Assembly: GCA_964347285.1 (NCBI GenBank)
Contig: CAYFYE010000015.1
Coordinates: 1-32,099, forward strand
Source: an uncultured Acidimicrobiia bacterium
Lineage (GTDB): Bacteria > Actinomycetota > Acidimicrobiia > Spongiisociales > JAOTWH01
Reading direction: 5' to 3'
Length of the DNA: 32,099 nt
Shown here: positions 12,001 to 18,000 of the stretch, piece by piece
How positions within the stretch are numbered: the stretch's first letter is position 1
How the letters are laid out: every line of letters begins with the position of its first letter
Program-made: the position numbers

Positions 12001-15000
12001 GTGACCCCGGCCGAGCGGTGGCTGGTCACCGGGGGCGTCGCCGCTTCGTTGATCGCCATGGGCATGATCCATTTCTCCACCGAACGGGCCGATCTCGCTC
12101 GTGACATCCTGCAGACGCGAGTACGTCTGGCGGCGGCCGCCGTAGTGCTGATCGTGGGCCTGGTGAGCGAGAGCTGGCCGGCCAATCTGCTGGCCGCGTT
12201 CCTGGCCGCGGTGTGCGCCCTACAGGTCCTCATCGACCTCAGCATCGCTCCCTCCGATTAGGCCTTCTTCTGAGGAGTGATTCCCCTAGTACCGTTTCGC
12301 CCATGGCCGGATCCAATCGGCTCGTGCGCACTCTCGTCGGCCATGCCGAGATGCGGAGTCTCGCCTTCTCTTCGGAATGGAGACTGATCCAGGGCGACGA
12401 TGAGCTGGCCGTCGTGCGCCGTTTTGCCCGCCAGCACATGTCGAGTGTGAGGCTGACCGACGGCACGGTGTGGACGATCGCTCCTCAGGGCTGGGGTACC
12501 GTGCTGGCCGCCGAAGGGGGGGTCCCGTTCGCCCGCATCGTGCGCCGTTCCTGGCTGGGTCGGCGCTGGGAGATCAGCACGATTGGCTTTGCCACCGACC
12601 TCCTCAGTCGCCCGGCGCCACGGCGGTGGAGAATGGCCATCGGCGGTGAGTCCATTGCCGAGCTGGCCGGGTCGGCCCTCTCCTACAACCGGCTCAGCAT
12701 CGATGCTCTGATCGGGGTCCCAGTGGCGGCGTTGGTGCTGGCCTGGCAGGTACTGGCCCGGCCCTGGGAGGCGGCTGCCTACCCGGTGGTCTTGGTCCCC
12801 GAGCGTGGCGAGCAGGCCCCGCCGGAGGCGGCCCATCCCGAACCGGCCTGAGGTGGGCGGCCCCCTGGTCGGCGTCGGATGGCTGGAGGGGCACCTCGAC
12901 GAACCTCGCCTTCGGATCGCCGACGTCCGTTCCTTGGGCGGCACGGTGCTCAATCGGTTCGCCTACGACGCCGGCCACATTGCCGGGGCGATCTTCTTCG
13001 ACATGGAGTCCGACCTGTCGGCAGATCGGGGGCCGGGGCGCCATCCGCTGCCGACCGGCGAGCAGTTCGGCGCAATGCTGGGTGACAGGGGCATCGGCAA
13101 CGAGCACACGGTGGTCGTCTACGACGATCAAGGCGGAGCGGCCGGGGCCCGGCTGTGGTGGATGCTGCGCCATTGGGGCCACTCCGAGGTCGTTGTGCTC
13201 GACGGGGGCCTGCACGCCTGGCTGAGGGCCGGGCTCCCCTTGACACGAGACGAACCCGAGTTTCAGTCCGCCTCGTTTTCCCCGGGCCCAGGCCGTGCCG
13301 ATACGGTGGATCGCGATCGGCTCCGTGATCTTCTCGGGCGAGTGGTGCTGGTCGATGCCCGGTCGGGCGAACGCTACCGGGGCGAGCAGGAGTTGCTCGA
13401 TCCCGTGGCCGGCCACATCCCCACTGCCCGCAACGCCCCCTTTGCGGAAAATCTTGGTTGGGACGGACGGTTTCGCTCACCCGAGGAACTGGCCGAGCAC
13501 TATCGGCGACTGGACGTGGCGGTCGGCGACGAAGTGGTCGTCTATTGCGGTAGCGGGGTCACCGCCTGCCACACCTTGCTGGCCCTGGAGGTGGCCGGTT
13601 TCGAGGGGGCCCGTCTCTATCCGGGATCGTGGAGCGATTGGGGCGGGGCCGGATATCCGATGGCCACCGGTCCCGAGCCGGGCTCCCCTTAGCGGCTCGC
13701 CTCCCCGGCGAGTCCCAGAGCCTCCTCGGCCGCTTCCAGGCGTTGCCCTCCCTCGAGCACGGGGGCGAACAGGTCCCCGAAACGCTGGAGACGGTCCCAC
13801 AGCGATGCGATGGTGAAATCGTTGGGCTCCACCGCGTCGAGCTCGTCCCACCGGACCGGCATTGACACCGGCGCTCCGGAGCGGGGCCGCACCGAGTACA
13901 CCGAAGCGATCGTCTTGCCGGCCACGTTCTGGTTGTGGTCGATGAACACCTTCCCCGCCCGGCGGGGGATGTCCCACTCCATCGTGACGTTGTTCGGATC
14001 GGCGGCCGCCACCAGCCGGCCCACCGTCTCGACGAAGCGGCGCACTCGTCGATATGGGTAGGCAGACTCGATCGGCAGGTAGAGGTGGAGGCCGGTCGCT
14101 CCCGAGGTCTTGGGATAGGCGGCCAGGCCGAGCCGTTCCAGGACGACGTTGACGTGGAGGGCGGCGTCGACCACTTGCTCCCAAGAAGCTCCCGCGGCGG
14201 GATCGAGATCGAAGATGGCGAAGTCCGGTCGATCGGGCGAGTGGACACGGCTCAGCCAGGGGTGGATCTCGATGCACCCCAAATTGACGATCCACAGCAG
14301 GGACTCGCTATCACCGGCGGTCACGAAGTCGATCGGGGCCTGGCGCTGCTCCGACCAGAGCGGTGCCGTCGGCAGCCAGTCGGGAGCGTGGGCCGGGGCT
14401 TGCTTCTCGTAGAAGAAGTCGCCTTCGGCGCCTTCAGGAAACCGGGCCATGACGATGGCCCGGTTCTCGAGATGGGGCAGGAGGAGAGGGGCTACCGCCG
14501 CGTAGTACTGCAGCAGGTCCCCCTTGGTGTATCCGTCCGCAAAGAACGGCTTGTCGATGTTGGTGAGCCGAAGGGGGCGGCGGGTGTCTCGGGGCAGGTA
14601 GGCGTCGCCCACCTCCTCCACCTTCATGGGAGTAGGAAAGGCGATCTTCCCCGAGCCGAGCGGGCGGGTGTCGTCAAGCCGGGTTGGGTTCGCTCCGCCC
14701 AGGGCGGCGCTCAGGTCGGCGTAGATGGCATCGTGACTCTGGCGCTCGCGGGCTTCGGAGATGAGGATCATCCGCATATCGGCTTCGGCCGCCGCCTCGA
14801 CGAGCGGTCCGACTCGCAGGCTTCCTTGTCCGTAGGCAACGTGGCGGATCTCCCCGCCCGGGCCGAACTCGTTGTCGGTGAACTGGCACTGGAGCGGATC
14901 GATGGCATAGCCGGGAAACTGGTCGCGCAGGAAGGCGAACACCCCCCCGAATGCCTCTTTGGAGGTGAGGGCGCCCTGGGACATTGCGTGGACGTGAGCC

Positions 15001-18000
15001 CAATCGACGACGGGGCGGACAAAAGGGAACTTGGCGGCAACGAGGGCGATGTCGCCGAGCGTGCCGAACGCCCTCTGGGTGCCGCTGGTTTCGAGGCCGA
15101 GCGCCACCCCCAGGTGGGCGATCTTGGGGGCGAGCTCGTCGAGACCCTCTTGGACCAGCCGGTGCAGCTCGTCGGGGGCCCGGCCCTTGGTGTGACCGAT
15201 GTGGGCCACCACCACGCGGGCTCCCAAAGCACGGCCCAGTTTCATCGAGTGCTCCAGCGATGCCTTGGTCTGTGTGCTGCGCTCGGGATCCTCGACGGTG
15301 AGGACGGCGAAGTAGGGAGCGTGGACCGACAACGCTATGTCGCGGGCGGCGGCCAGCTCACCGAAACGTCGGCAGCGCGGTTCCTTCCAGGGGAATCCGG
15401 TGACGAAGGCCAGCTCGAAGGCCCGATGCCCCTGCGCAACGAGCCGGTCCAGGAACTCCTCATCACTGGTCCCCTCGCGGGGCAGGCCGGAGATGCCGAA
15501 GCGGATCACGACTTCACCCTACGTGTCTCCCCGTGCCGTCCGGACGGTCAGAGAGCTCGGTAGACGTCGGGGTTGGCGCAATGGGGCATAGGCCGACTCG
15601 CCAAGGCCTCTATGAGGTTCGTGGCGGCCAGATCGGCCATGGCGGCTCTGGTCCGCTCGCTGGCGCTGCTGATGTGGGGAGTGATCACGCAATTGGGCAG
15701 GGTGAGCAGCGGGTCGGAGGTGTCGATGGGTTCGGGGTCGGTCACATCGAGGGCGGCGCGAGCGATGACACCGTCACGGAGTGCCTCGTAGAGGGCGGCC
15801 GAATCGATGATCGGCCCGCGGGCCACGTTTACCAACGTGGCCGACGGCTTCATGCGCCTCAAAGCGCCGGCGTCGATGAGGTGGTGGGTGTGGGCGCTGA
15901 GCGCTGCCGTGATCATCACGTGGTCGGATTCCGCCAGGAGATCTTCGAGGCTCCGGTAGGCCGCTCCCAGCTCCACCTCGGCTTCCGGCTTGCGGTGGGG
16001 ACCGGTGTAGAGGAGGCGCATACCGAACCCGACCGCTCGCCGGGCCACCGCCTGCCCGATACGTCCCAGTCCTACGATGCCCAGCGTCGTGTCGTGGAGG
16101 TCGGCACCGAGGAGTAGGTCCGGTTCCCAGCGCCGCCAGCTTCCGGCCCGCACGTAATCCACGCCCTCGACCAAACGCCGGACCGCCGCGAGCAACAGCC
16201 CCATGGCGGTGTCGGCAGTGGTTTCGGTGAGCACCCCGGGAGTGTGGCCGACCGGGATGCCACGGTTGGTGCAGGCCTCCAGGTCGATGTTGTCGACGCC
16301 GACGGCCATCTGCGAGATGACCCCGAGTTGAGGAGCGTTTTCCAGCAGGTCATTCCCGATCGGGTCGGTCAGCATCGTGTAGAGCCCCACTGCAGTGGCC
16401 GCTTCCTCATGCAGGACCTCGGCGGGGATGGCCCGGTCTTCTTCCCACAGCCAGACGTCGCACGATTCACCCAGGCGGGCCAGGGCTTCTCCGGGCGGAC
16501 GTCTGGTGACGACGACTCGTGGTCGGTCTTCCATGGCGGCCGAGCGTACCGGCCCCGCCCGGCTTGCGGGTTGGGGCTAGCCGCCCTGCGGTCCGCGCAA
16601 CACTCGAGCCGGGAGCCGGATCACGGCCTCGATGAGCTCCAACACCCCTTTCACCGAGATGCCGATCAGCCGAAATGGAAGGCCGAGCAGCCAAATGAGG
16701 GGGTAGAGGATCAGGGCGAGAAGGGCCAGGGGCCATGCCAAGACCAACAGAATGAGCCACAGCAGAAACTTCAGCATTTCACCTCCCAGGAATCACGGCG
16801 ACGTAGCACGTATTCGGACCCGGCTGGGGTCCCGTGCCCATGCCGTAGTCCGCCCCGGCACTCAGTGCCTGGAGCCCTCCACTCCAGTCGGCTCTGGCCG
16901 AGCCGGGCCGGGCTCCTCGAGCTCGGCCGGCGGCGCCGTGGGCGGGACTTCCTCGATCGGCCTGCGGAGTCCGCGGTACATCAGATATCCGCCGCCCAGG
17001 ACCAGGATCACACCGACGCCCAGCGCACTCCACGTGAGGGGCGTGGCATAGGACACTTTGGCCCCCACAACCAGGGTCGCGTCGACGCCGGCCGAGGCGT
17101 CGGCGTTCATCACCACCACCGACCATGTGCCGGACTCGACTTCCCAGTCGAGCGTCTGGTTTCCCGGACCGGTGACCGAAGCCTCCCAGATGCCGAGGGG
17201 GGCCGGAGCGTCCGGAATGGTCGCCCCTTCTCGGAGTGTGTAGTCCACCTCGAACGGATCGAGGCTGACGTTGTCGACCTCATGGTGCGCTACGGCGGTG
17301 AGGTAGCCGTCCACTTCGGCGGACGAGGCAATCCCCAAGAACACGTCCTGCCCCGTGTTGCTGACGCCGACCATTCGAAAGTCGACGAGATCGGTGAACC
17401 AGTCGGTCAGCCAGGACGGAGCATCGGAGAGGACTTCGATGTCGTCGGCCGTAATCGCGTGTGACGCCTGCGCGAATCGATGCTCTTCAGTGACGTAGAA
17501 CCCGTCGTCGTCCTTGTCGGCGGCAAAGACCGTAACCGCCCCCGAGATGAGAGCTGCGCCCACCAATAGGGCGAGGACACCAAAGAACAAGGCAAAGAAC
17601 CTGCGCATCGTGAGACCTCCTCCTCTGGGAGCCTCCTATCACGGCGGATGGGCCGGGTTCCAGAGGCGAAGGACTCTTGGTCGGTCGGCTTTCGGCAGTA
17701 GCCGGAGAGGAAATGCAGAGGGCCTCGCCGGCGGTACTCCGGTGACGCCGAACCTCCTCAGCGCACCACCACGTCGAGGCCGCTCGGGATCTCGAGGAAT
17801 TGGGCCCGGTGACCCTCGGCTCGGACGGAGAGGCTCTTCTCCCCGATTCGTACGCCCTCGATGGTGAGCTCGATGCCCTCGGGGAGCTTGGGGGCTACCA
17901 CCACCTTGCCCTGAGGCACGTCGGGGTCGATGCCCAGCAGTTGCTCGGTGAGGTACACGGGTACCGCCGCCGCCCAAGCTTGCGGCGACGAGCTCGTCGG

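Follow-up and report, generated by a model that had tools for sequence, protein, structure and literature searches.

The gene analysed here, from an uncultured member of the Acidimicrobiia, probably encodes a self-contained DNA repair enzyme with two activities, joining a barrel of the endonuclease IV (Endo IV) type to a LigD-type primase-polymerase (Prim-Pol). The survey's finding had described a two-step enzyme that first cleans a DNA end and then fills the gap, and this remains the best reading by inference, while its assignment of the polymerase to the Prim-PolC subfamily and its dependence on LigC do not stand.

Table 1. Features of the barrel-polymerase gene, with positions in the window
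Feature	Position	Strand	Basis or description
Candidate ribosome-binding site, Shine-Dalgarno-like hexamer AGGGTG	15515-15520	minus	5 nt 5' of GTG; sequence reading
Whole gene	13689..15509	minus	606 codons plus stop, GTG start; full-length AF2 model mean pLDDT 91.8, pTM 0.89
Endo IV-like TIM barrel, aa 1-272	14694..15509	minus	Pfam, family alignment, counts in 122 orthologues, AF2 pLDDT 91.6, VIA Z 26.3 to T. maritima Endo IV
Connector, aa 273-312	14574..14693	minus	About 10 poorly conserved residues, then three short predicted strands (281-283, 296-300, 303-306)
LigD-type primase-polymerase core, aa 313-584	13758..14573	minus	Pfam, NCBIfam, alignment to 5op0/6sa0, orthologue counts
Short C-terminal tail without Loop 3, aa 585-606	13692..13757	minus	Alignment and motif search

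Architecture and conservation of the gene

The frame contains no internal stops, and its codon-position GC content (0.71/0.47/0.84) is like that of the other coding frames in the window, the whole 32,099-nt stretch of DNA that was analysed. Pfam placed AP_endonuc_2 (PF01261) at residues 21-261 (E 3.3e-24) and LigD_Prim-Pol (PF21686) at residues 328-581 (E 6.9e-89), in agreement with the earlier description of a single open frame that joins a TIM barrel to a primase-polymerase. The Pfam search found no ligase domain in the 606-aa protein, so that the public label of NHEJ DNA ligase/LigD is indeed at odds with its content. Source records name the homologues 'non-homologous end-joining DNA ligase' or 'LigD'. 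As had been reported, both PF01261 and PF21686 were present in 120 of the 120 homologue rows listed, one row being the fusion protein itself; the other listed homologues are 64-74% identical to it and 591-633 aa long. Relatives are encoded at 252 genome loci, and both domains were found in 80/80 of the best 80 of these 252. Within the order, the barrel domain occurs in 28 of 37 genomes, each time in a frame of at least 601 aa. Barrel-Pol order is found in family f90, and the reversed Pol-barrel order in f76. The Pol and barrel trees recovered the same fusion clade (support 89/91 and 0.919, respectively) and are congruent where their sampling overlaps. From these data we infer that the fusion is genuine and conserved, and that it unites a metal phosphodiesterase barrel resembling Endo IV with an intact Prim-Pol domain. 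The connector between them has a mean column conservation of 0.50-0.66, and its pLDDT in the full-length AF2 model rises from 63 at residues 271-280 to about 90 thereafter. In one genome (G086) the barrel is deleted and the connector is retained.

The N-terminal barrel

The putative metal ligands of the barrel are H63, H103, E140, D169, H172, E220, H223 and E252, with Y66 in a HAPY motif. Among 45 aligned family members the first seven are invariant and E252 is nearly so, and all eight together with Y66 are retained in 121-122 of 122 fusion orthologues. The ligands of E. coli Endo IV are H69, H109, E145, D179, H182, H216, D229, H231 and E261, and eight of these nine positions appear to be kept in the barrel if Glu220 is counted for Asp229. 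Both 'nine residues' and Glu261 are mentioned in PMC2770678. The equivalent of Asp229 is Glu220, shifted by one residue (E-x-x-H versus D-x-H), confirming the substitution noted previously. The candidate for H216 is position 207 by HMMER register and numbering parity or position 209 by the QFTD motif; both are Gln in this protein (Q207 and Q209) and His in the wider family. The survey's statement that this site is His in most homologues thus fits position 207 (His in 92 and Gln in 30 of the 122 orthologues) and fails at position 209 (Gln in 118, His in 4).

A PDB search with the single protein returned, as before, M. tuberculosis Endo IV 5zhz (1.7e-3) and UV-damage endonuclease (UVDE; 0.012). 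With a barrel-family profile the values became 8e-18 to 4e-11 for Endo IV and 6e-10 for UVDE, and reached only 7e-6 for Art22 and 7e-4 for tagatose epimerases. By hhalign, the fusion-clade barrel profile matched the genome's own Endo IV with a probability of 92.7% (E 4.2e-7). The nfo model was matched by 44 of the 45 family members. Just two of the genome's six PF01261 matches, the fusion barrel and the canonical nfo, also matched TIGR00587, the barrel (20.9-22.7 bits) lying far below the cut-off of 129.65 bits and the canonical nfo scoring 118.4. In structural comparison by VIA, the four best of 48,161 chains were all Endo IV (Z 26.3, 25.6, 24.9 and 24.8; rmsd 2.6-3.0 over 257-263 residues), and isomerases followed at Z 20-24, a modest margin of only 2-5 units. 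By Foldseek E-value Endo IV and sugar epimerases cannot be told apart, as noted in the survey; TM-score and rmsd favour Endo IV.

That psicose epimerases come first by Foldseek E-value (1e-12) bears on the alternative that the barrel is not a DNA phosphodiesterase, but rather an isomerase or hydrolase acting on sugars or other small molecules, or a module with altered catalysis that serves only to recognise damage and direct the polymerase. This alternative also draws on the predominance of sugar isomerases in PF01261, the Gln at the H216-equivalent position, the inactivity on DNA of some Endo IV-like proteins such as PF1383, and the match of 33 of the 45 family members to the model of the cobamide phosphodiesterase CbiR. 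We nonetheless regard it as quite improbable. H63, H103, H172, E220 and H223, which we take to be Endo IV/UVDE ligands beyond the four common to sugar epimerases, are invariant, and the Tyr of HAPY is present in 122 of 122 orthologues; profile E-values are more than 10 orders of magnitude better for Endo IV than for epimerases, and the barrel's fusion to a DNA polymerase exists in either domain order, the trees of the two domains being congruent. A barrel resembling UVDE, nicking 5' of photoproducts or bulky lesions so that the polymerase starts repair synthesis in an alternative excision repair, would account for the sequence matches to UVDE structures (0.012 for the single protein, 5.7e-10 for the profile), the fold match (VIA Z 19.9) and the 4 of 45 family members that match the uvde model. 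However, Endo IV is ahead on every measure and alignments to UVDE do not extend beyond the first half of the barrel (profile positions 46-186), making this reading very unlikely.

The nearest free-standing relatives of the barrel come from archaea, measure about 280 aa and go under the names TIM barrel protein, deoxyribonuclease IV or endonuclease 4; the barrel belongs to this archaeal-type Endo IV-like family and is not an nfo orthologue. Since 36 of the order's 37 genomes encode a canonical nfo, the role of housekeeping AP endonuclease does not depend on the barrel. Two archaeal Endo IV-like proteins count as warnings against assuming Endo IV activity: PF1383, which is inactive on DNA, and MJ1311, the best PDB match of the barrel profile, deposited as 'D-tagatose 3-epimerase-like', which reportedly keeps the nine ligand residues and lacks the DNA groove. 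Our literature search found no activity assay of any barrel-Pol family member.

The C-terminal polymerase and LigC

The polymerase core carries N317, K320 and K329 in the N-terminal DNA-end-binding region, D434 and D436 of the DxD motif, S469-G470, G473 and H475, and D524 in FIDHNQN, all retained in 121-122 of 122 orthologues. For the AEP catalytic residues, the counts are 122/122 for D434, D436 and D524 and 121/122 for H475. The domain passes TIGR02778 (ligD_pol) with 244.4 bits against a cut-off of 214.7, and the genome's Prim-PolC orthologue scores 169.6. In the PDB sequence search it matched Prim-PolC 5op0/6sa0 (5e-50), its best-scoring solved relative (175.8 bits versus 164 for a Methanocella NHEJ polymerase).

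According to PMC7442782, the Prim-PolC subfamily is defined by a C-terminal element, Loop 3 (M. smegmatis residues 313-333, with a P320/N321 pin). This element is absent from the fusion: its alignment to 5op0 breaks off at residue 286, and only 22 more residues follow before the end of the protein. The Loop 3-like motif PWPPHYPK was found in 0 of 16 barrel-associated Pol sequences, and it is present in three of four Prim-PolC-type sequences of the order, the fourth having PWPPHFPK. A separate 329-aa Prim-Pol of this genome aligns to Prim-PolC over its full length, Loop 3 included (297 bits), and is encoded on another contig, one gene from a LigC-type ligase that passes NF006078 (418 versus 296). 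Within the order, the fusion Pol is 30-34% identical to Prim-PolC-type domains and 41-43% to Ku-linked LigD Pol domains, and in the Pol tree it forms a clade of its own, apart from the latter. Membership of the Prim-PolC subfamily, as proposed in the survey, is therefore not supported: Loop 3 is missing, TIGR02778 is passed, and a true Prim-PolC stands elsewhere in the genome. Against this correction, Prim-PolC is the best-scoring solved relative, and the tree groups the fusion and Prim-PolC clades at 90/89, under the tree tool's 95/80 star.

These two counterpoints also favour the idea that the protein is a fused Endo IV and Prim-PolC working in LigC-dependent base excision repair, like the separate mycobacterial enzymes. 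PMC5663958 describes LigC, Prim-PolC and Endo IV as cooperating in mycobacteria, with Endo IV giving the best LigC/Prim-PolC repair in vitro and being the best gap processor, and a LigC-type ligase is encoded in this genome. By contrast, the fusion lacks Loop 3 and is the more distant from the Prim-PolC-type domains of the order, and it is the genome's other, Loop 3-bearing Prim-Pol that stands near LigC; f90 also pairs a ligase with an adjoining Prim-Pol apart from the fusion. Moreover, no LigC-type ligase was found in fusion-bearing G013, where the only ATP-dependent ligase adjoins Ku, or in G078 and G126, where no ATP-dependent ligase was found. In two congeneric genomes the fusion has stayed intact (dN/dS about 0.2) and neither Ku nor an ATP-dependent ligase was found, indicating that LigC is not required. 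The LigC-dependent pathway put forward in the survey is thus unlikely.

Candidate ligase partners, proposed mechanism and known systems

No Ku or ligase gene was found in the window, bearing out the survey, or within 8 kb of the fusion at any of the best 80 of 252 loci. Of the order's 28 fusion-bearing genomes 25 have Ku, as do 4 of the 4 f76 and f90 genomes examined; related genomes are not independent observations in these counts. In none of the 25 Ku-positive fusion genomes does a Pol domain lie closer than 5 kb to Ku, and in 16 of them a ligase-only gene stands no more than 3 kb away; the Ku-adjacent ligase of the present genome passes TIGR02779. In G013, G250 and G432, all with Ku, the fusion is the sole Prim-Pol found. 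Of four Ku-bearing genomes without the fusion, three have Pol and phosphoesterase (PE) domains at the Ku locus, and the fourth (G086) has a ligase-only gene adjoining Ku and, at another locus, a fusion-clade polymerase that lacks the barrel. PE (PF13298) has no match in this genome, which is 90.5% complete; elsewhere it is found together with the fusion in 6 of the order's 28 fusion genomes and in both f76 genomes. In many genomes there is a third Prim-Pol, about 300 aa long, which could serve Ku instead.

We reasoned that the enzyme would act in three steps. The barrel, as a multinuclear-metal phosphodiesterase, would cut 5' of an abasic site and/or strip 3' blocks (phosphate, phosphoglycolate and unsaturated aldehyde are candidates), leaving a 3'-OH. 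The polymerase, by homology with the LigD family, would then grip the downstream 5'-phosphate and extend the 3'-OH over a short gap or synapsed break, probably with rNTPs and Mn2+. Because a nuclease is joined to a gap-filling polymerase, a single polypeptide is probably able to clean a DNA site that is broken or lacks its base, and then to refill it. Finally, nick sealing would fall to a separate ligase. In most genomes this partner is probably the LigD homologue next to Ku, a ligase-only protein devoid of polymerase and nuclease, and the fusion would add Pol and end cleaning to it, as parts of a dispersed LigD. The partner is not obligatory, since the fusion persists in genomes in which no Ku and no ATP-dependent ligase were found; an NAD-dependent ligase would be the sole remaining sealer there. 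In B. subtilis spores, ligD and nfo are non-additive (PMC4770248). A more far-reaching and tentative proposal, which we hold to be doubtful, is that LigD has in the barrel a fourth, hitherto unrecognised accessory module, a nuclease of the Endo IV type that heals ends and takes the place of the phosphoesterase in a dispersed machine of Ku, ligase-only LigD and barrel-Pol. If true, such three-gene end joining would exist in one Acidimicrobiia order and at least two other Actinomycetota lineages, and a Ku-independent gap-repair activity would explain survival of the fusion after loss of Ku and ATP-dependent ligases.

The mycobacterial LigC excision-repair set comprises Endo IV, Prim-PolC and LigC1 (Plocinski 2017, PMC5663958; Brissett 2020, PMC7442782). 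Like it, the fusion is predicted to combine, in this sequence of action, an Endo IV-type 3'-end cleaner with an AEP-family filler of 5'-phosphorylated short gaps. It differs in uniting both enzymes in one polypeptide, in its Pol without Loop 3 and its barrel of a distant archaeal-type family, and in being unlinked to LigC in a genome with a separate Prim-PolC and LigC-type ligase. Bacterial LigD (Pol, phosphoesterase and ligase, acting with Ku) resembles the fusion in its Pol, which passes the LigD-pol equivalog-domain model TIGR02778, in the attachment of the polymerase to a 3'-end-processing metallo-nuclease (predicted for the fusion), and in co-occurrence with Ku and a LigD-type ligase-only gene. 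By contrast, the fusion has no ligase domain, lies near Ku in 0/80 loci (best 80 of 252), has a Pol clade separate from Ku-linked LigD Pol domains, and carries a TIM barrel instead of the PE fold, so that any likeness of the nucleases is one of role only. Endo IV itself (E. coli 1qtw, T. maritima 2x7v/2x7w) has the same fold (Z 25.6-26.3) and differs in the nfo score (21-23 bits for the barrel versus the 129.65-bit cut-off), the Gln at the H216 equivalent and the E-x-x-H in place of D-x-H. The HAPY, HxG, ExxG and DxxH motifs and a C-terminal Glu are shared with Endo IV and with the archaeal Endo IV-like proteins PfuAPE (PF0258) and MJ1311 (3wqo), PfuAPE being a putative member of the barrel family from matching residue numbers (H70, H110 and E261 in P0162) and a similar published N-terminus only.

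The fusion gene and its distribution

The fusion gene is a single open frame as the survey's finding had stated, with 606 codons from a GTG start that are open throughout, a third-position GC of 0.84 in line with other genes of the window, and an AGGGTG located 5 nt upstream of the GTG. A Pfam search found the two domains listed in the table below and no ligase domain in the protein. Both domains were carried by 120/120 rows among the matches listed, and the public labels of these homologues are indeed NHEJ DNA ligase or LigD; fusion proteins are mislabelled as DNA ligases in public records. 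The full-length AF2 model had a pLDDT of 91.8 and a pTM of 0.89 with a partly structured connector, while prediction of barrel and Pol as two chains gave a complex score of 0.01, which we counted neither for nor against contact. The 3' end of the gene overlaps a convergent two-domain rhodanese gene by 4 bases. Elsewhere in the window, a gene for RtcB RNA ligase lies directly downstream of one for archease, its usual activator, and a 723-aa protein combines universal stress protein and ABC1 atypical kinase domains.

Locations of the fusion, its domains and other loci (window positions unless a genome, contig or residue range is given)
Feature	Location	Strand	Remark
RtcB RNA ligase and archease genes	675-2568	-	487 aa, E 1.5e-167 (RtcB); 139 aa (archease)
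Two-domain rhodanese gene	12805-13692	+	
Overlap of rhodanese and fusion genes	13689-13692		
Fusion gene	13689-15509	-	606 aa
AP_endonuc_2	aa 21-261 of fusion		Pfam 3.3e-24
LigD_Prim-Pol	aa 328-581 of fusion		Pfam 6.9e-89
Stress protein-ABC1 kinase gene	23288-25459	-	
Prim-PolC orthologue and LigC-type ligase, this genome	G000 C17:12397-15300 (L007:3398-6301)		
~300-aa Prim-Pol near LigB-type ligase	G050:C7:81773-83780		
~300-aa Prim-Pol near LigB-type ligase	G042:C21:18877-22164		
~300-aa Prim-Pol near LigB-type ligase	G033:C22:48369-52608		
~300-aa Prim-Pol near LigB-type ligase	G046:C19:146763-151437		
Ku locus with separate Pol and PE genes	G038:C6:34756-37892 (L117)		

Among 151 sampled genomes of the class, the barrel was present in 28, all within the organism's order Spongiisociales (28/37, against 0/114 in other orders), and the frames that contain it are never shorter than 601 aa. 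In the phylum sample it appeared in 17/401 genomes, the 17 including two unpublished ones on which no other result depends. Outside the order, family f90 has proteins of 601-604 aa in barrel-Pol order, family f76 (GC 44%, 1.5 Mb genomes) has 600-aa proteins in the reverse Pol-barrel order, and in family f87 the barrel is a free-standing protein of 270 aa; one 90% cluster includes members of 345 and 255 aa. Forward and reverse fusions formed one clade (0.919) in a FastTree barrel tree of 29 hand-chosen rows that leaves out named references such as PfuAPE (PF0258), as they did in the Pol tree. In one genome of the order, G086, the barrel has been deleted, with connector and Pol domain retained.

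Identity of the barrel and class of the polymerase domain

Searching 1.84 billion representatives with the barrel (aa 1-300) gave 686 matches, comprising fusions, a single reverse-order protein and numerous free-standing proteins (260-295 aa, 24-46% identity). Most of the closest free-standing relatives come from archaea (Micrarchaeota, Thermoplasmata, Methanobacteriota), and the names they go by are TIM barrel protein, deoxyribonuclease-4 or endonuclease 4. An ESM Atlas search returned generic PF01261 clusters only. In an alignment of 45 matches selected for full length, H63, H103, E140, G149, D169, H172, E220 and H223 were invariant and E252 was kept in at least 90%; 44/45 members rang the nfo (Endo IV) model (best 5.9e-23), 33/45 CbiR and 4/45 uvde. 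The resulting profile matched MJ1311 (4.9e-18), nine Endo IV and APN1 (8e-18 to 4e-11) and UVDE (6e-10), and more weakly Art22 (7e-6) and tagatose epimerases (7e-4).

Foldseek E-values had no power to separate Endo IV from Art22 or sugar epimerases, as the survey had cautioned. By VIA structure comparison, the AF2 model of the barrel (pLDDT 91.6) scored highest against the Endo IV structures from T. maritima, E. coli, S. aureus and T. thermophilus (Z 26.3-24.8), followed by MJ1311 (Z 24.4), Art22 (Z 23.8) and sugar epimerases (Z 20-22). Across 122 fusion orthologues, H63, Y66, H103, E140, D169, H174, E220, H223 and E252 were retained in 122/122 and H172 in 121/122. The barrel scores only 21-23 bits with the nfo model, far under the cut-off of 129.65, and its motif is E-x-x-H in place of D-x-H. 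It had been proposed that the site equivalent to E. coli H216 is Gln here and His in most homologues. Three alignments disagree on the equivalent, which is placed only to within two residues; Gln stands at both 207 and 209 in this protein, and the second half of the proposal holds for position 207 (His in 92 and Gln in 30 of 122) but fails for 209 (Gln in 118). In the account of PMC2770678, PF0258 combines AP endonuclease, 3'-phosphatase and 3'-5' exonuclease activities, and PF1383, which is Endo IV-like with some key residues absent, is inactive. As a lead only, the barrel-family member P0162 has H70, H110 and E261, the residue numbers mutated in PF0258.

The polymerase had earlier been called Prim-PolC-type. 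Loop 3 (residues 313-333, with a P320/N321 pin) is described as the defining element of the Prim-PolC subfamily (PMC7442782). The fusion domain aligned with Prim-PolC over chain residues 11-286 only (175.8 bits), not reaching Loop 3, and the protein stops 22 residues past the end of this alignment. A separate 329-aa Prim-Pol on contig C17 of this genome aligned to 6sa0 residues 3-338 (297 bits) with Loop 3 covered. It lies one gene from a ligase passing NF006078 (418 vs 296 bits), which we take to be the LigC model. The LigD-pol equivalog-domain model (cut-off 214.7) was passed by the fusion domain (244.4), whereas the C17 protein failed it (169.6). Within the order, fusion Pol domains are 41-43% identical to Ku-adjacent LigD Pol domains and 30-34% to Prim-PolC types. 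An IQ-TREE Pol tree of 28 hand-chosen sequences, without named references such as M. smegmatis PolD1/PolD2, resolved clades of Ku-linked LigD (3 rows), a ~300-aa class (5), Prim-PolC (4; stem length 1.66) and barrel-associated domains (16; support 89/91). The grouping of the last two had support of 90/89, under the tree tool's 95/80 star, so that the deep placement is tentative. Loop 3, model scores, identities and the tree therefore led us to give up the earlier assignment and to file the fusion Pol as a LigD-family Prim-Pol forming its own clade.

At the C17 locus, an alpha/beta hydrolase gene lies between Prim-PolC and the LigC-type ligase. The Loop 3 pin there is P-H, compared with P320-N321 in M. 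smegmatis, and its His is common to 4/4 Acidimicrobiia Prim-PolC sequences inspected.

Ku, ligase and phosphoesterase partners

We searched the best 80 of 252 related loci by tblastn, the queries being Ku, Prim-PolC and the three ligases of this genome together with the neighbours of the fusion in the window. Neither Ku nor a ligase was found beside the fusion gene in these 80, extending what had been noted for this gene. Only a rhodanese (24/80) and a 212-aa ORF (15/80) recurred, and an operon clue is therefore missing. A defence role was considered and dropped upon no PADLOC matches.

In this genome (90.5% complete), Ku adjoins a 380-aa ligase passing TIGR02779 (229 vs 227.75), a LigC-type ligase near Prim-PolC and a LigB-type ligase are also encoded, and no LigD phosphoesterase (PE) domain was found. 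Across the 37 genomes of the order, 25 have fusion and Ku, 3 the fusion without Ku (G028, G078, G126), 4 Ku without the fusion, and 5 neither. In none of the 25 does a Pol domain lie within 5 kb of Ku, while 16 of them encode a ligase-only protein no more than 3 kb from Ku. The Ku locus includes Pol and PE in three of the four genomes that have Ku without the fusion (G038, G110 and G142), and the fourth, G086, has a barrel-less fusion-clade Pol. No Prim-Pol other than the fusion was found in G013, G250 and G432, all with Ku, or in G078 and G126. The arrangement of Ku with a ligase-only gene and the fusion elsewhere recurs in families f76 and f90, f90 having in addition a separate ligase-Prim-Pol pair.

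That the barrel strictly replaces PE as a rule was rejected because PE and fusion coexist in 6/28 genomes of the order and 2/2 f76 genomes, and replacement of nfo was rejected because canonical nfo is present in 36/37. G078 (100% complete) and G126, in which Ku, PF01068 ligase and PE were all not found, keep fusions with every key residue and a dN/dS of ~0.21 between the two (simple Nei-Gojobori count). Maintenance of the fusion in these genomes speaks against the LigC-dependent repair role proposed earlier. Together with PE coexistence and the prevalence of nfo, the absence of Ku there was counted against an obligate Ku link.

Four genomes of the order encode a third free-standing Prim-Pol class (~300 aa) within ~4 kb of a LigB-type ligase (~500 aa), a hint that each Prim-Pol class is paired with its own ligase. 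At the G038 Ku locus, where Pol and PE are separate genes, the ligase domain between them matches in just three weak fragments (E ~1e-4) and may be a decayed LigD ligase.

A candidate clean-and-fill enzyme

The best-supported reading is of an enzyme that would first clean a site and then fill it without being tied to one ligase, every catalytic step of which we infer. In most lineages, it would supply the polymerase and nuclease functions missing from the Ku-adjacent ligase. The fusion also suggests that a different fold can occupy the nuclease slot of LigD. The architecture is natural and widespread (found at 252 species-level genome loci, in both domain orders and under purifying selection), and no description of it was found in the limited literature searched. 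As a compact single protein, this candidate can be directly expressed and assayed. Present understanding of end joining in bacteria and of stationary-phase excision repair comes from a few model LigD/LigC systems, and the evidence for a hand-off from Endo IV to Prim-Pol has so far come from reconstitution with mycobacterial enzymes and from the genetics of B. subtilis spores. By physically joining an Endo IV-type nuclease to a LigD-family polymerase, the fusion provides independent evolutionary support for this hand-off.
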